Assembly (NCBI GenBank): GCA_018303425.1
Contig: JAGVYF010000001.1
Location: forward strand, 3,539-67,538
DNA length: 64,000 bases
From: Candidatus Woesearchaeota archaeon
GTDB lineage: Archaea > Nanobdellota > Nanobdellia > Woesearchaeales > JAGVYF01
Reading direction: 5' to 3'
Positions 3,394 to 47,240 of this stretch are shown here, in pieces; the first letter of the stretch is position 1, and every line of letters begins with the position of its first letter. The translations under genes and the position numbers were made by a program. Under the pieces are notes generated by a model that did no database searches, was not told the DNA's origin, and saw only the letters and a list, made by a program, of their open reading frames with translations.

Positions 3394-4269
3394 ATGAAAG
3401 TTATTATTTCAATTCCGGCCTATAATGAAGAAAAAACTATTGATAAAGTAGTCCTAGAAATAAATGAAGTAATGTGTAGTACGAATTATAAATATGAAAT
3501 AATAGTTATTGATGATGGATCCAAAGATAAAACTGTTGAAATTGCAAAAAATGCGGGAGCAAAAGTTTATTCAAACAAAATTAATCTTGGGCTTGCAGAA
3601 ACTTTTAAGCATGAGATTCAACGGTGTAAAGAACATAAAGCAGATATAATTGTGCATACTGATGCAGATGGTCAGTATCCGGCAATATTCATTCCGCAAC
3701 TCATCAAAAAGATAGAAGAAGGTTATGATTTAGTTTTGGGAAGCCGGTTCGGCAGGGGGAAGTATAGCGGTTCTATGACTAAAAGTATGGGCAATATTGC
3801 ATTTGCTAAATTATTTTCCCGATTATTAAACGCTAAATTGACAGATACAACAACTGGATTTAGGGCATTTACAAATAGGGTTGCAGAACTGCCTTTGATT
3901 AATACTTTTACATATACCCAAGAACAGCTTATTCGGGCAGGCAAGGCAAAGATGAGGATTGGAGAAATCTCAATTAAAACAAGAAAAACTCGGCCTAGTC
4001 GATTATTTAGTGGACCTTTAAACTATGCGCTAAAAGCATGGATAAACATATTTCGAATATATAGAGATTTTGAACCGTTAAAATTTTTTGGTATTATAGG
4101 GTTAACTTTATTTACTCCGGGTTTTTTGATTGGGCTCTATTTTATTTTATTGCACTTTACAGTGGGTATAAGCGGCCATACGGGTTTATTATTTCTAATG
4201 TTAATACTTTTGTCAACCGGATTACAGATTATGTTATTTGGATTTTTGGCAGATATGTCTAGAAAATGA
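3394..4269 (+). CDS. polyprenyl-phosphate sugar synthase-type GT2 (DPM1/GtrB/ArnC-like)
   Basis: VIISIPAYNEE...DDGSKDKT...HTDADGQY plus two C-terminal TM helices. AGGGGA RBS 8 nt upstream of ATG 3394. Confidence 0.75.
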   Translation: MKVIISIPAYNEEKTIDKVVLEINEVMCSTNYKYEIIVIDDGSKDKTVEIAKNAGAKVYSNKINLGLAETFKHEIQRCKEHKADIIVHTDADGQYPAIFIPQLIKKIEEGYDLVLGSRFGRGKYSGSMTKSMGNIAFAKLFSRLLNAKLTDTTTGFRAFTNRVAELPLINTFTYTQEQLIRAGKAKMRIGEISIKTRKTRPSRLFSGPLNYALKAWINIFRIYRDFEPLKFFGIIGLTLFTPGFLIGLYFILLHFTVGISGHTGLLFLMLILLSTGLQIMLFGFLADMSRK

Positions 4270-5174: not shown

Positions 5175-6580
5175 TTTCCGAGATAAGATAATCCTTTAAT
5201 TAAATATCTTTTAAACATATTAAAATCACGAATCTTAAAAAATTGCCTTAAAATATAATTTGGCCTGATATAAAATTCTTTGTATGCTTGTTTTTGAATT
5301 GTTTTTAAATATTCTTTCGTTAAACCATGCGGCAAATAAACCGGTTCATTGCTATGGCTTGACATATTTTCATAGGCATTTGGATCAAAAGTCCCATATT
5401 GGGCGCAGATATTATAAAATTCAGTATTTGATAACGGCATAACTAAACTAAATTGCACGCCATCAAGTTTTAAAGACTTTGCAAAATTAATTGTATCATT
5501 AATTGTTTCTTTTGTTTCAGTAGGATTTCCAATCATAAAGTAACCTTTAGTAAATATTCCCGATTTATTTACCTGATTAATAACTTCATTTACTTGTTTG
5601 AAATTAATTCCTTTTCTTAAAAAAGTTAAAATGTCTTTATTTCCGCTTTCTATTCCAAAACTAATGTACCAACAACCTGCTTTTTTTATTAAATTGATTA
5701 ACTCCATATTTTGATAAATCACATCTATTCTTCCATGGCAAGACCAAGTTAAATCAATGTCTTTTTCTAGAATCAGATTACAAAAAGTTTTGATTTTTTG
5801 TGGGTCTAATAAAAAAGTATCATCGACGAATTGAATTTCTTTTATACCATATTCTTTCTGTAAATGTTCTATTTCATTAATAATATATTCGGCAGAATGT
5901 CCCCTATATTTCCTTCCGAACACATGTTCGCAAAAAAGACAAGCGTATGGGCATCCCCTTGTTGTTATCATTGTTGTCATTGGCAATCTCATATATCGAA
6001 AACTAGATTTATATACCGAATTGGTTATGTCTAAAAGATGTCTTGCCGGGAAAGGGAGGTTATCTAATTCATCTAATAACGGCCTATCTTTATTTTCTAT
6101 AATCTTCCCTTCTTTTCTAAAAATAATTCCGGATATTTCGGCATATTTCCCTTCATTTTCCATCTCAAAAATTAATTCTATTATAGTATTTTCACTCTCT
6201 CCTTTTACAATAAAATCAATATTAGAGTTCATCTCCATTAGTTTTGTTTTAAGTAAGGATGCATGCGGTCCGCCTAGAATAATTTTAATATTTTTATTTG
6301 CTTCCTTAATGATATCAATACATTTTAAAATCTGTTTATGCATTAAAGTAATTGTAGTTATTCCCACCACTAGGGGATTTTCATTTTTTATATAATTTTC
6401 AAGTTCTTCTTCAAAAATATTTTGCGCTTGACCATCAAAAATAACTACGTTGTGATTTTTTTGTTCTAAAACTGCCGCAATATACATTAAACCGAGCGGG
6501 GGATAGGTCGCACTTTGTTCGTCCCATCTTAAATTTTTATTAAATAAAGGGGGGTTAATCAATAATATTTTCATAACCAA
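5171..6580 (-). CDS. B12-binding radical SAM enzyme
   Basis: N-terminal Rossmann-like B12-binding region (MKILLINPP...VVIFDGQ). TRGCPYACLFCEH CxxxCxxC. 469 aa. Confidence 0.8.
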   Translation of the reverse strand: MVMKILLINPPLFNKNLRWDEQSATYPPLGLMYIAAVLEQKNHNVVIFDGQAQNIFEEELENYIKNENPLVVGITTITLMHKQILKCIDIIKEANKNIKIILGGPHASLLKTKLMEMNSNIDFIVKGESENTIIELIFEMENEGKYAEISGIIFRKEGKIIENKDRPLLDELDNLPFPARHLLDITNSVYKSSFRYMRLPMTTMITTRGCPYACLFCEHVFGRKYRGHSAEYIINEIEHLQKEYGIKEIQFVDDTFLLDPQKIKTFCNLILEKDIDLTWSCHGRIDVIYQNMELINLIKKAGCWYISFGIESGNKDILTFLRKGINFKQVNEVINQVNKSGIFTKGYFMIGNPTETKETINDTINFAKSLKLDGVQFSLVMPLSNTEFYNICAQYGTFDPNAYENMSSHSNEPVYLPHGLTKEYLKTIQKQAYKEFYIRPNYILRQFFKIRDFNMFKRYLIKGLSYLGN

Positions 6581-42887: not shown

Positions 42888-42975
42888 ATTAGTATAATAA
42901 AAATTTTAATTTGAAAATGACTTTAAAAATATTTATAGTCTTGAATATATTTTAAAAATATTAATTAAAAAAAGA

Positions 42976-43090
42976 GTGGACAGCTTTCCGGGCTTCCCGT
43001 ACATGAGTACAGTACAACCAAGAACGGAGGCATGCTTAACTTCCGTGTTCGAAATGGGAACGGGTGAACCAGGCCCCTATGACCGTCCAA
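42976..43090 (-). rRNA. 5S ribosomal RNA (orphan copy, not linked to 16S/23S in this window)
   Basis: Minus-strand sequence GGACGGUCAUAGGGGCCUGGUUCACCCGUUCCCAUUUCGAACACGGAAGUUAAGC...GGGAAGCCCGGAAAGCUGUCC. Universal loop-C motif. Helix I pairing of ends GGACGG/CUGUCC. GC-rich island in an AT-rich region. Confidence 0.85.
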
Positions 43091-43316
43091 AATTAAGGTT
43101 TTATTGGCCGTTTATAAATGTTTCTATAATTAGGCGCTGTCCAGAGTCGTTTCATTGTTAATTAGTATCTTCAGATTTAAACATCGGAATTCCTGTTCTA
43201 TTCTCCCGAATACTTGGAGGGATTGATTTTTAGTGCAACGATGCCAAAGACAAAAAATCAAAGTTCAGAAGTTTTGGATTAGCAATATTAATAAAATAGG
43301 GTGAATTAATAAGAAT

Positions 43317-44126
43317 ATGAAAGTTACTATTATGACCTATAATGTTGAAAGAGGATTTCATACCAGAGATCATAATATTGAGAAAAAAAGATTAATGGCT
43401 GCTCAACAAGCCGTTCAAAAAGTGAATCCAGACATTCTTGCAATTACCGAAGCTTGTTATGGTGCAGAAAACTCACAAGGTATCTTAATGGATTATCAAA
43501 AATTATTTGATTTTCCTTACGGTAAATATGGAGGGTATCCTACTTTTGGACCTAGAAAAGGAGATGAAGGAGGAAATTGCATTTTGTCAAAATATCCCCT
43601 GGATGCAGAAAACGTAAAACTTTTGTTTAAAGGTGCAATTCGTGCCAGAATTGGGCTTGAAGGTATTGTTTTGACAATTGATGTTGTGCATCCATCTTAC
43701 TCTGTTGATGATTATGAAAAAATAAAAACTCTGAATCCTTTAATTTCAAATAGGCCATCTCATTACATTCTTACAGGAGATTTTAACACAGTCCATCCGG
43801 ATGATAAATATAATTGGGATTTGTTAACTGAAGAATTAACGAGTTTTAATCCGAAAAAGGCAAATCAAGTTATTGCAAATTGGAAACAAGCTGGTTTTAT
43901 CTCCTGGCTGCAAAAAATAGGTTTAGATGATTCATTTCCAAAAAGCAGAAGAGAATCCACTGTACCAACAAATTATGCTTACGGCGAAACCAGAACGGGG
44001 GTGAGGATGGATTTCTTTTTTCATTCTCAAGATATTGAAGCAATCGATTCTTATGTTCTAAAAGACAGCAATACTGAAATCGCTTCAGATCATTATCCTA
44101 TTGTTGGCATATTTAAAACAAAATAA
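43317..44126 (+). CDS. endonuclease/exonuclease/phosphatase (EEP) family protein
   Basis: MTYNVERG...DILAITEA N-terminus and C-terminal SDHYPIV, typical of EEP fold. Confidence 0.6.
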   Translation: MKVTIMTYNVERGFHTRDHNIEKKRLMAAQQAVQKVNPDILAITEACYGAENSQGILMDYQKLFDFPYGKYGGYPTFGPRKGDEGGNCILSKYPLDAENVKLLFKGAIRARIGLEGIVLTIDVVHPSYSVDDYEKIKTLNPLISNRPSHYILTGDFNTVHPDDKYNWDLLTEELTSFNPKKANQVIANWKQAGFISWLQKIGLDDSFPKSRRESTVPTNYAYGETRTGVRMDFFFHSQDIEAIDSYVLKDSNTEIASDHYPIVGIFKTK

Positions 44127-44303
44127 GCCAAGATTTCTGAATTGAGTTTACCATAGTGCAGTTAGCGTTAGCGAACGGAACAGAGATTGGAAACTGCATT
44201 TGGGTGAAGTGAAGCTTTCTCAATTGAAACTAACATCGGATTCTGTTAGGCGTCCCGAGCGTTAGAGAGAGCCTGCAAGGCGTGGCAAAATCTAAAAGAT
44301 TTT

Positions 44304-45048
44304 GAGTTCAGAATTCGGCGGTGGCGGGACGGCGCACTATTTGTTAGGGTTATAATCTGATTCGTATCCTGGATTTGTTTTTGGTCTATATTTGTTTGGA
44401 TATTGAATATCAGTTTTGACCGCGTGTGAAACTTTTTTGAAAAATTTGAACACCTCATAAGGATTCTCAATATGGCTAATAGTGTAGGGTTTTTGTACTG
44501 CCCCACTTCTTGTATAAGTAAAACTACCAGCGGTTGAAATAAGTATGTTACCGGATTTCCTACCAAAAAGGATATCCAAAAATCCAACATTCACTTCAGC
44601 ATTTGTTATCTGGTCAAAATCAACCATTTCAAAATCTCTGCCAATCAACCCTTTTTGAAGAAGAACTCTTTTGTTTGTAATTGTATAATAGGTATGTTTG
44701 TAAACCAAAGCTTTGTATATTGGAACTCCAAAAACAAATCCTACACCAATCTAAAAATGTGGGAGAAGAATAAAGAAATAATTTCCACTAGCTATTCCCT
44801 GAAGTACGAAAAAACCACCTATGGCCAGAAAGAATATTCCGAATATCGCACCTGCAAATCCACCTATAAAAAATGGCCCGAATTTTGGTTTTCCTTCCCA
44901 GAAAACTTTTTCATTTTGGTCTAATACTTTATCTAATTCTCTCATATTACTTAGTTTAATTATAACATATTTATAAATCAATCGTTTTTGTGCGCCGTCC
45001 GTTTGGGGTGGGTGGTCGAGGGACTGCCGAATTCTGAATTACGCCTAA
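44304..45048. repeat. imperfect 34-50 nt inverted repeats (GAGTTCAGAATTCGGC..GGACGGCGCAC / GTGCGCCGTCC..GCCGAATTCTGAAT) bracketing the bPH pseudogene
   Basis: 44304-44337 is the reverse complement of 44990-45039 apart from a 25-nt insert in the right copy. Additional pairing TTAGGCGT (44245-52) with ACGCCTAA (45040-48). The flanks are about 50% GC against about 28% background. Confidence 0.6.
44337..44981 (-). pseudogene. bacterial-PH-domain (bPH_2/YdbS-like) membrane protein interrupted by in-frame TAG
   Basis: ORFs 44751..44981 (EKVFWEGKPKF plus TM1) and 44337..44708 (YTITNKRVLLQKG...GNILISTAG PH domain) are in the SAME frame. A single amber codon at 44751-44753 inside predicted TM2 separates them. 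Confidence 0.55.
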
Positions 45049-45147
45049 CATCGCGATCGCTGTTAAACTCTCCCGATAGGGAAGCAAAAAATCGGCGTAT
45101 CAAGGTGCGAAGCACCATTAGTTAAAAGAGTTAAGAGGTCGGTGAGC

Positions 45148-45545
45148 TTATTTCTTCTTACGGAATAAGATATATGCTAAAAGGACTATGATTATAACAA
45201 TAGCAATTCCGAAAGCAATTAATAGCGTTCGGTTGTTTTGTGTGGATTCAACTGGTTTTTGTGATTTTTCTATTGTGTATGAATCAAATTTTTTGGCGAA
45301 CAATGGTTTTGAAACTTCTCCTTCAATTTTTAATCCTGTTTTAAAAACATCATCTTCATTTGCGACTTATTTTGGGAGAGATATTTTTTGTTGTAAGCCA
45401 ATAGCATAAGCTTCTTCACAAGAACTATAGTCATATTCTCTCTGCTTCACTAAGGTAACTTCTTCAATATCGATTGTTAACAAATATTCATCAGGATGAC
45501 AGATTTGTTGTATTGTGTTTTGTCATACATTATTATCGCCAGTAT
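45148..45545 (-). pseudogene. degenerate remnant of a C-terminally TM-anchored (…LLAYILFRKKK) protein with in-frame TAA and TGA
   Basis: Minus-strand translation gives ...EYLLTIDIEEVTLVKQREYDYSSCEEAYAIGLQQKISLPK*VANEDDVFKTGLKIEGEVSKPLFAKKFDSYTIEKSQKPVESTQNNRTLLIAFGIAIVIIIVLLAYILFRKKK*. A single reading frame is broken by internal stops. Confidence 0.3.
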
Positions 45546-45664
45546 ACATATTTATTACTTTCTGGACAGCGCCTATAATTACGGCTTGATTACATTGATT
45601 CTTTTACACTAGTGTCGGATTTAGACTAAATCGGGAAAACATAATCAGAAATAATTAAACGACT

Positions 45665-46477
45665 TTAAATTTTTTTATTTGTTTCAATAAAGTTCTGCAT
45701 TGTTTTAACAAATTGATTAGCTTCTTTATAAAAATCATCATACTGTTTACCTGATAATTTAATAATTTCTCTATTGGATATTTTTTTAGCAAGAATATAA
45801 AACTTATTCATCGTTGTAGCATATTCTTTAGAGATTAATTTTGGTTTTACCATTTTTTCGATCATCATGTCATCAACATGCTTGGGGCTAGGGGGTACTT
45901 CTCCAAGGGACATTAAAGCTGCATGGGCTGCATCAATCACTGCCCAATACAGGTCCATTACACCCTGCAATATATGCCATTTTGAATTTTGTAAAGTTCT
46001 TGGCGCTCTTGAGAAATATGTCCACACACTTTCAGGCGTAGGTCTAATCCTTCCTCTAATTAGTAATGCTTGCAATGGATCAAAAAAGCCCGAATCCAAT
46101 AAAGCATATCCATCCCTTAAAATATTTATCCCTATCGGATCAGAATTTCGAATATAATCCCAAAAAGAAGTTATTTTTAAAGTGGTTACATGAAGTCTTT
46201 CAGAAGTTTCAGCGATCAATTGTTCCATAATTATTCTATATGTTTCAACAAGTTCGGGACTCAACTCTAAAGAGATGTCATCTATTATGATCAAAATATC
46301 AATATCTCCTCCCGGCATAACTTCCTTTCTTGCTGCGCTTCCAAAAATTATCAAAGATTTAATAAAATTACCAAACTCCGTGTAAGCTTTTTTCGAAAAA
46401 TTATAAGCAATTTGAAGCTCTTCAGAACTATATCTATGGACATTTGGGTTATCTACTTCTTTTAATGCAAACTTCAT
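45665..46477 (-). CDS. nucleotidyltransferase-domain protein (Pol-beta superfamily NTase with C-terminal helical, HEPN-like region)
   Basis: FGSAARKEVMPGGDIDILIIID (GS...D.D NTase signature). 270 aa. Confidence 0.6.
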   Translation of the reverse strand: MKFALKEVDNPNVHRYSSEELQIAYNFSKKAYTEFGNFIKSLIIFGSAARKEVMPGGDIDILIIIDDISLELSPELVETYRIIMEQLIAETSERLHVTTLKITSFWDYIRNSDPIGINILRDGYALLDSGFFDPLQALLIRGRIRPTPESVWTYFSRAPRTLQNSKWHILQGVMDLYWAVIDAAHAALMSLGEVPPSPKHVDDMMIEKMVKPKLISKEYATTMNKFYILAKKISNREIIKLSGKQYDDFYKEANQFVKTMQNFIETNKKI

Positions 46478-46611
46478 TCATTGTTTTAAAGAAGTAAAAC
46501 TTTATTAAACTTTTGATTTATTGGACAATTGTAAGATTTGGAAATTATTTATACTTATTGAACAATAGTAACATTGGGAAAATATATAATCTTAATATTA
46601 ATATTATATAT

Positions 46612-47045: not shown

Positions 47046-47240
47046 ATGGGAAGAATAAAAAATAAATTAATTAAAAGAACTGCAAAAGAATTATTACAGA
47101 AGTATGGAGTAAATTTTAAGAAAACTTTTGAAGAAAATAAACAAATTATTCCTAAATATGCTAAGATTAATTCAAAAAAATTAAGAAATGTCATTGTAGG
47201 GTATATTACTCATTTAAAGAAGACAAGAGAAGATTATTAA
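47046..47240 (+). CDS. rps17e: 30S ribosomal protein S17e
   Basis: MGRIKNKLIKRTAKELLQKY...IIPKYAKINSKKLRNVIVGYITHLKK matches the eS17 N-terminal domain (MGRVRTKTVKK...PSKKLRNKIAGYVTHL). Confidence 0.85.
   Translation: MGRIKNKLIKRTAKELLQKYGVNFKKTFEENKQIIPKYAKINSKKLRNVIVGYITHLKKTREDY

Follow-up and report, generated by a model that had tools for sequence, protein, structure and literature searches.

Integron gene cassettes carry a signature in that their first bases derive from the core site of their own attC, and recognition of the extrahelical bases of attC is attributed to an insertion specific to the integron integrase (IntI). The pdif sites of Acinetobacter are plain double-stranded sequences of 28 bp that alternate in orientation and depend on the host XerC/XerD recombinases, and the modules they delimit likewise carry inverted arms at their flanks. 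Integrons have also been described in archaea, from which archaeal attC sites are available (Ghaly et al. 2022; PMC9668308). Here, we analyze a 64-kb stretch of DNA, hereafter the window, from the AT-rich genome of a Candidatus Woesearchaeota archaeon, and in particular a gene for a bPH_2 (YdbS/YdbT-like) membrane protein that is enclosed by long inverted arms. We propose that positions 44244-45050 are probably a gene cassette that belongs to a site-specific recombination system resembling integrons, and that it stands in an array that is now a relic. How accessory genes are acquired is poorly understood in bacteria of the candidate phyla radiation (CPR) and in archaea of the DPANN group (Diapherotrites, Parvarchaeota, Aenigmarchaeota, Nanoarchaeota and Nanohaloarchaeota), all of which have tiny genomes, and a cassette platform with its own type of site would, if real, give both a concrete mechanism of gene exchange.

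Element E and the pairing of neighboring sites

The cassettes are delimited by a structured, multi-copy element, which we call E. Read on its G-rich strand, E has the outer form N6-AAC-A/G-U ... UGUU-N6, and its body runs from helix P1 through hairpin P2 and a GG followed by hairpin P3 to the return strand of P1, forming a three-way junction. AAC and UGUU are invariant in the aligned sequences (15/15), and the base of P2 is always AAGUU/AAUUU with a G.U pair. Across this alignment of 15 sequences 94% of cells are paired, compared to 72% in shuffles, and double changes are present in 19 of the 28 pairs; none of 500 shuffles matches the observed values, and slid registers pair at no more than 48%. 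G.U pairs are common, with one in P2 in 13 of the 15 sequences, while A.C is nearly absent, indicating that E folds on one strand.

The first further copies were found in GTDB genomes through a 20-nt string from the cassette arm, and a covariance model of E (R1) recovers 38 copies at E-value <= 0.01 in the loci examined, all of them on one strand within any given contig. Copies occur in Pacearchaeota (VGKS01 and VGKT01), Woesearchaeota (JAFCDX01), and Nanoarchaeota (JAUYHR01), with several in a single metagenome-assembled genome (MAG) beside unrelated genes, and co-oriented arrays are seen in these three groups as well as in Parcubacteria and in IMG/VR contigs. The window holds a single cluster. 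A viral origin of the arm sequence was rejected, as it has no exact match in IMG/VR.

Neighboring copies of E are linked by complementarity across the gene between them. UGUU and the eight nucleotides that follow it in one copy, E(n), pair with the eight nucleotides and AACA of the next, E(n+1), at a mean of 5.56 of 8 Watson–Crick positions, and 14 of 18 such comparisons reach at least six paired positions when G.U is counted. Boxes taken from the same E pair at only 2.79/8 (3/29) and boxes of other contigs at 2.99/8, while in the window itself pairing across the bPH gene is perfect (10/10). Pairing of this kind, in which a box finds its complement in the next site and not across its own, is what marks integron cassettes. 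The segments between copies span 0.5-4 kb and commonly contain a single gene, which may point either way. Their cargo comprises three GNAT acetyltransferases, an S-adenosylmethionine (SAM) methyltransferase, an APH-family kinase, an AsnC-type regulator, a radical-SAM protein, and unknowns, and is typical of integron cassettes.

Breakpoints of the kind that cassette exchange would leave may be visible in MAG VGKS01, where L078 1-97 was compared with two segments of L019 (reverse complement [rc] 1033-1113 and rc 3508-3627). The two loci share an identical 77-nt arm up to AACAT and then continue into different E interiors, and one E interior is preceded by two different arms; either cassettes have been reshuffled in the population or the assembly branches at repeats. 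Separately, one array copy at L074 rc ~5990-6020 has a GACGGC/GCCGUC helix that encloses only a GGGAA loop and no gene; it could represent an "empty" cassette or have arisen by deletion.

The proposed bPH cassette and its array in the window

Comparison with relatives of the bPH gene defines the cassette as a unit. More than 380 intact homologues (200-212 aa, 59-92% identity) are found in Pacearchaeota, Woesearchaeota, Nanoarchaeota, and Patescibacteria. The armed architecture surrounds the gene in L018, L019, L040, L031, and L030, with remnants in L020, L025, and L029, and armed orthologues occupy at least six unrelated contexts. Locus L031 carries an intact 209-codon bPH gene and a full E, and its similarity to the window is confined to exactly 44243-45050 (76% across 834 nt), meaning that the cassette is the unit of shared ancestry. 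Some relatives (78-83% identity) and those in CPR bacteria are ordinary packed genes without arms, and a conserved arrangement of bPH within an RNA was therefore rejected. As an observation on the protein itself, bPH_2 is 60-65% identical between DPANN archaea and Patescibacteria and lies among housekeeping genes in CPR genomes (L082, L084), making it a strikingly conserved small membrane protein common to both ultra-small groups.

The features of the locus, in window coordinates, are as follows.

42975-43090, minus strand: stand-alone 5S rRNA gene (Rfam, 64.9 bits), ~85 nt from mini-site E0
43173-43207, plus strand: mini-site E0, AGAUUUAAACAU-CGGAAUUCC-UGUUCUAUUCUCCC (R1 11 bits, E-value 0.17; third-best match)
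43317-44126, plus strand: endonuclease/exonuclease/phosphatase (EEP)-family gene, cargo between E0 and E1 (Pfam PF03372, 3.2e-19)
44127-44154, plus strand: arm remnant of an older site with AAC box GAUUUCUGAAUUGAGUUUACCAU (repeat search)
44155-44223, plus strand: remnant of a degenerate E interior, with hairpin GUGCAGUU...AACUGCA then UUUGGG (sequence and minimum-free-energy fold)
44225-44257, plus strand: mini-site E1, UGAAACUAACAU-CGGAUUC-UGUUAGGCGUCCCG (R1 16.8 bits; E-value 0.083 for the whole window, 0.0048 locally)
44244-44253, plus strand: start box (R') of the bPH cassette, UGUUAGGCGU, inside E1
44254-44305, plus strand: conserved "middle" module, CCCGAGCG..GAGAGCCUGCAAGGCGUGG plus hairpin CAAAAUC-UAAAA-GAUUUUG
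44304-44337, plus strand: left arm, with helix strand GAGUUCAGAAUUCGGCGGU, a G-run, and GGACGGCGCAC abutting the bPH stop codon
44337-44945, minus strand: bPH_2 (YdbS/YdbT-like) membrane protein gene, 202 codons (Pfam PF03703, translation)
44946-44989, minus strand: promoter segment of the cassette, with a transcription factor B recognition element (BRE)/TATA sequence TTTATAAAT at 44970-44978, ~24 nt before the ATG
44990-45039, plus strand: right arm, with GUGCGCCGUCC, a G-run (45005-45015), and helix strand ACUGCCGAAUUCUGAAU
45040-45074, plus strand: mini-site E2, UACGCCUAACAU-CGCGAUCGC-UGUUAAACUCUCCC (best R1 match in the region, 16.9 bits, E-value 0.0043)
45041-45050, plus strand: end box (R'') of the bPH cassette, ACGCCUAACA, inside E2
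45075-45147, plus strand: short GC-rich hairpins after E2, UCCC-GAUA-GGGA and GGUGC-GAA-GCACC, at the position of the "middle" module
45148-45560, minus strand: next cargo, a small open reading frame (ORF) with a C-terminal membrane anchor, right after E2 (three-frame translation)

Much of what the initial annotation had described here is borne out. It saw two segments of about 50% GC around an AT-rich insert, and in 100-nt windows GC is indeed 0.42-0.54 in the left flank (44150-44349) and 0.42-0.52 in the right (44950-45149), compared to 0.25-0.41 inside the insert and ~0.3 in the genes alongside. The inverted repeats it reported at the junctions are exact: GGACGGCGCAC (44327-44337) pairs with GTGCGCCGTCC (44990-45000) at 11/11 positions and TGTTAGGCGT (44244-44253) with ACGCCTAACA (45041-45050) at 10/10, and between these pairs lies a helix of 14-17 nt, TTCAGAATTCGGC(GGT) with (ACT)GCCGAATTCTGAA. 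Its placement of the insert at the tip of a long potential helix also holds. The duplex of the two arms has an energy of -57.6 kcal/mol, whereas dinucleotide shuffles average -40.5 +/- 4.5 and 0 of 300 reach the observed value. The arm helices covary in L018, L019, and L040 (AAAUUUAAAUCUC/GAGAUUUAAAUUU and GACGGCGCGCG/CGCGCGCCGUC); where these relatives have AAAUUUAAAUCUC/GAGAUUUAAAUUU the window has UUCAGAAUUCGGC/GCCGAAUUCUGAA, so that the letters differ but complementarity is kept. The "middle" motif recurs in L074, L019 unit B, L070, L076, and L079, and a module akin to it comes after UGUU-N6 in several of the cassettes examined.

The annotated YdbS-like PH-domain gene with one in-frame TAG is likewise confirmed by Pfam and translation, the reading frame being unbroken save for the TAG at 44751-44753. 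Five homologues have Trp (PHFW) at this position, indicating a change of TGG to TAG. The neighboring EEP gene is present in six metagenome contigs, and the two that were aligned across the locus (L001 and L006) are identical to the window base for base, meaning that the stop codon is no read error; the same sequence was found again in several groundwater metagenomes. Genome-wide recoding of TAG was rejected, as long intact ORFs fill the window and the TAG replaces a Trp. Established archaeal promoter geometry suggests that the cassette has its own promoter, and the spacing of BRE/TATA from the ATG implies a leaderless mRNA; several bPH orthologues, both armed and unarmed, have conserved CGATTAATTTATAAAT upstream.

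The sites of the window are reduced forms of E. When R1 was run over 42900-46600 with filters off, the three best matches (45040-45074, 44225-44257, and 43173-43207) all lay on the plus strand. In each, the entire interior is replaced by 0 nt, leaving AACAU-CG..CG-UGUU, so that the mini-sites keep only the outer base pairs of P1. They share the motif AACATCG..CTGTT-N6-YCCCGA, whose parts are combined at no other point of the window, and E0, the left boundary of the EEP cassette, is an E core without the three-way junction in which 65 model positions are replaced by 0 nt. Deletion of the hairpin interiors by replication slippage is plausible. Segment 44155-44223 resembles P2 plus AAUUUGG of full copies, and R1 gives no match there.

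The older remnant at 44127-44154 falls in one direct-repeat family with 45029-45051. Within it, GAGUUUACCA pairs with UGUUAAACUC (45061-45070) at 9 of 10 positions, and GAGUUUACCAU (44144-44154) is complementary to the same UGUUAAACUC, the pattern expected if an incoming bPH cassette had split a resident site; such a site, unoccupied, would have read GAGTTTA[AC]CAT-CGCGATCGC-TGTTAAACTC. Comparison of orthologous loci, a check that the initial annotation had proposed, yielded nothing through the EEP neighbor, as this gene has no relatives in GTDB species genomes.

The ORF at 45148-45560 is also broken by in-frame stops (..QQKISLPK*VANEDD..), making two adjacent cassette genes pseudogenes. With stops in both, three internally deleted sites, and no recombinase within 64 kb, the array is best read as a decaying relic, although the direction of the decay is our inference. 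It is this decayed example that led to the E family. The hairpins at 45075-45147 are unconserved in relatives. Farther along, ribosomal protein S17e is encoded at 47046-47240. Arrays in related loci adjoin tRNA genes (L018 2644-2715; also L030, L079, and L080), and arrays may favor the neighborhoods of stable-RNA genes.

Short tyrosine recombinases beside E arrays

A gene for a 270-aa tyrosine recombinase (P0121) lies just beyond the bPH cassette in L018, and a recombinase 46% identical to it occupies the same position and orientation in L070; these enzymes are 263-271 aa long. In L018, L070, L079, L080, and L081 the E array is upstream of the recombinase gene and on its strand. The array ends in L018, L079, L080, and L081 at a conserved junction to variable DNA, ..N6AAC followed by TCGTTTCTATACGAA.., and the ~165 nt from this junction to the recombinase start codon are conserved, while L070 has a different inverted repeat at the junction position. 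We infer that the conserved upstream region acts as an attI-like site. Integrase-proximal cassettes have arms of 16-30 nt, which are complementary around the proximal cassette in L079 and L081; the boxes of L080 pair partly.

Identity among the best 120 homologues listed for the recombinase is 74-100%, and their sources are Patescibacteria and many metagenome contigs, including bacterial contigs of 41-44% GC with very different gene content. Among the loci of close homologues examined (L079, from Parcubacteria, L080, and L081), a large serine recombinase gene comes after the short recombinase in L080 and L081, which suggests a recently spreading composite element. No known plasmid or phage element was recognized, the closest relatives in PLSDB and INPHARED being <= 41% identical. 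A separate GC-rich hairpin module, GGCGAGCGGGCAAAAATTGGAGGGG...TTTTTGCCCGC..., also recurs across hosts, lying between tRNA genes and the region of the recombinase (L018 rc ~1-420; L080 3860-3958; L079 6816-7250).

Eighteen IMG/VR loci with short recombinases 31-40% identical were intended as a negative control and failed as such, since E-like arrays are present in them as well. E-like sites occur in 10 of the 12 loci, with recombinases 31-39% identical, that have at least 1 kb of upstream sequence, all of them upstream and on the recombinase strand, with no independent match downstream or on the opposite strand. Their compact arrays consist of ORFs of 57-101 aa running towards the recombinase gene and obey the cassette rule perfectly. 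In L085 1-1460 and L091 1000-1840 an E-like site comes after each ORF, the unit repeating every ~400 nt, and the L085 array ends at ..GGGTATAAC followed by TATTATATAT...

The proposed bPH cassette consists of start box UGUUAGGCGU, the "middle" module and its arm, the bPH gene with its promoter, the complementary arm, and end box ACGCCUAACA. E is attC-like in topology, with AAC and GUU boxes around a folded body. By analogy with integrons, the folded G-rich strand would be the substrate of a short IntI-like tyrosine recombinase, with strand exchange taking place at AAC or immediately 3' of it. Excision would release a cassette as a circle, whose two arms and boxes would pair into one long hairpin capped by the three-way junction. 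Integration would then follow either at a different E or at the attI-like site that adjoins the gene for the recombinase.

Whether E and its short IntI-like recombinase amount to an undescribed, widespread integron-like platform for gene capture in CPR bacteria, DPANN archaea, and phage-like elements is a question on which we are evenly divided. With equal reserve, its parts would be an attC analogue built as a three-way junction, long arms particular to each cassette, and an integrase that lacks the IntI insertion. A literature search of incomplete coverage, which leaves room for an earlier description, returned canonical archaeal and phage integrons only and no account of the E system. If true, the near-identical recombinase, at 75-95% identity across hosts from both domains, would mark an active route of cross-domain gene transfer that current integron finders overlook, and the pairing of an IntI-like enzyme lacking the insertion with a different folded site would bear on integron evolution.

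Alternatives and comparison with known systems

Several observations weigh against an integron-like cassette. Within the 64-kb window there is neither a recombinase gene nor a full E, and the window's sites score just 11-17 bits. The contig data examined revealed neither circular cassettes nor empty sites nor activity, and the metagenome breakpoints could partly be assembly breaks at repeats. Gene orientation within arrays is mixed, the complementarity of the boxes runs on into arms of 10-70 nt, and neither these long arms nor the three-way junction, the "middle" module, or the G-runs have an integron counterpart. Canonical attC identity for E was rejected: an attC model (R2) of aadA7 and nine archaeal attC sites (Ghaly et al. 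2022, data S10; PMC9668308), a small model run with default filters and no positive control, gave no match at E-value <= 10 in 161 kb holding E. As for the enzyme, it narrowly fails the integron integrase model TIGR02249 (227 bits against a cut-off of 265), and its alignment to the integron integrase structure 2a3v comes in two pieces (query 3-194 to residues 4-200, and 194-270 to 241-317), skipping IntI4 residues ~201-240, so that the IntI-specific insertion is absent. The recombinase class is thus ambiguous, and a Xer-type enzyme acting on double-stranded sites could be at work.

An unlikely reading that takes up this last point holds that the cassettes resemble Xer/dif modules, with a XerA-type enzyme acting on double-stranded sites in which inverted arms NNNNNNAACAU and UGUUNNNNNN surround a central region; the modules would then, no more probably, move as Acinetobacter pdif modules do, with an accessory or regulatory role for the three-way junction. 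The recombinase, of the Xer clan and lacking the IntI insertion, passes the NCBIfam archaeal XerA model NF040815 (245 bits against a cut-off of 220), genes lie between inverted recombinase-binding arms as in pdif modules and archaeal XerA-dif, and the window's mini-sites, at ~30 bp (for example, GCCTAACAT-CGCGATCG-CTGTTAAAC), look like simple core sites of ~28-30 bp. Yet the strong covariation inside the three-way junction of full sites, together with its invariant, strand-specific G.U, points to a single strand that folds. Sites are co-oriented and do not alternate, and the system has an attI-like region and a dedicated, highly mobile recombinase gene. The best match of that recombinase in the PDB is the integron integrase IntI4/VchIntIA (2a3v, 8.8e-48), ahead of XerA.

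The initial annotation had offered a small nonautonomous mobile element with long terminal inverted repeats (TIRs) as one possibility, and the general idea stands, in that the cassette is a discrete, formerly mobile, nonautonomous module with long inverted ends. That it is a TIR transposon with a passenger gene, akin to miniature inverted-repeat transposable elements (MITEs) or foldback elements, moved by a transposase in trans and with the G-runs beside the GACGGCGC repeats as target-site duplications, is distinctly improbable. Like those elements, it forms a multi-copy family of units with long inverted repeats around a gene and no transposition gene of their own, and in L018, L019, and L040 G-runs (GGGTGGGGG) are directly oriented on both sides. 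However, the ends covary from cassette to cassette where one conserved TIR would be expected, cargo varies from copy to copy, and no target duplication lies outside the ends. Homology stops at UGUU/AACA and not at the G-runs, which in the window form no clean duplication and sit between boxes and gene, and a structured E interior always lies between units. Among the arrays examined we noticed no gene for a transposase, whereas the tyrosine recombinase is consistently adjacent.

The other possibility raised by the initial annotation, that the flanks are a structured noncoding RNA (ncRNA) gene, or genes, on the plus strand interrupted at the tip of a hairpin by a bPH segment, inserted or intron-like, is not supported and must be judged more doubtful still. 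The spliced flanks do fold better on the plus strand (-136 kcal/mol, vs -110 on the minus strand), and the covariation and G.U pairs of the G-rich strand would suit RNA as well as single-stranded DNA. No Rfam family, however, matches the window locus or its relatives at any threshold: a scan with Rfam 15 at the gathering score finds only 5S rRNA in the 64-kb window, nothing meaningful appears at E-value <= 10 in 44100-45170, and eight related loci give no match at E-value <= 1. An archaeal bulge-helix-bulge intron was rejected because the motif is not visible at either junction when read by eye. E keeps its orientation while flanking genes point either way, its pairing partners are neighboring sites across different genes, it is linked with the recombinase and attI-like junction, and the bPH "insert" contains its own promoter. 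The annotators had taken the lack of an Rfam match and of further genomic copies as grounds for abandoning the element, and within the window both are lacking; the copies in other genomes overturn that intent. Their reading is thus partly supported, in that they recognized something real and guessed its general nature. For annotation, the lesson is that GC-rich, "RNA-like" islands in AT-rich DPANN and CPR genomes should not be presumed to be ncRNA genes.

Particular RNAs and functions were also rejected. Strings suggestive of motifs of Escherichia coli M1 RNA, the RNase P RNA (CCAUAG-GCAG, AACAGAGA, GGGUGAA, ACAGAA..CGGC) were picked out by eye, have no Rfam match, and are unconserved in relatives. 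The weak likeness to signal recognition particle (SRP) RNA helix 8 that had been noted (UCCC-GAUA-GGGA-AGCA, 45071-45086) is real as a string but shares both failings. P4-type RNase P motifs had been noted as absent, the Rfam scan gives no RNase P match, and a "P4-like" pairing is actually a continuous helix of 17 bp. Judged from sequence against the architecture of archaeal origin recognition boxes with their G-string, a replication origin is rejected because the G-runs are direct and not inverted.

Least probable of all is an intergenic repeat related to repetitive extragenic palindromes (REP, including bacterial interspersed mosaic elements [BIMEs] and REPINs) or to IS200/IS605, whether a terminator or mRNA stabilizer or single-stranded DNA moved by a HUH enzyme (RAYT/TnpA) and inserting 3' of AACAU: E is extragenic, hairpin-forming, strand-specific, multi-copy, and set beside a fixed short target, which recalls the insertion of IS200/IS605 beside a fixed pentanucleotide and its head-to-tail arrays, but no HUH gene was seen in any E locus, copies are clustered beside a tyrosine recombinase rather than dispersed, and E delimits different genes under a box-to-next-box pairing rule foreign to those families.

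We are left with integrons as the closest comparison, in which two defining features fail, the IntI insertion and canonical attC recognition. The E recombinase, at 263-271 aa, is short and lacks the IntI-specific insertion, and E folds around a three-way junction in which AAGUU/AAUUUGG is conserved and one G.U pair is fixed. Cassette genes of the E system often have their own promoter and may point either way, and in the IMG/VR arrays ORFs run towards the recombinase gene, unlike in integrons. The likenesses are nevertheless extensive. In both systems, co-oriented arrays of mostly single-gene cassettes lie beside a tyrosine recombinase and an attI or attI-like junction, conserved AAC...GTT triplets surround a folded, sequence-variable body of which one strand folds better, and the cargo abounds in unknowns and in genes for GNAT enzymes, methyltransferases, and kinases. 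The best solved relative of the E recombinase is itself an integron integrase, VchIntIA, and the box that starts an E cassette is, as in integrons, complementary to the box at the cassette's own far end and not to its partner across the same site.

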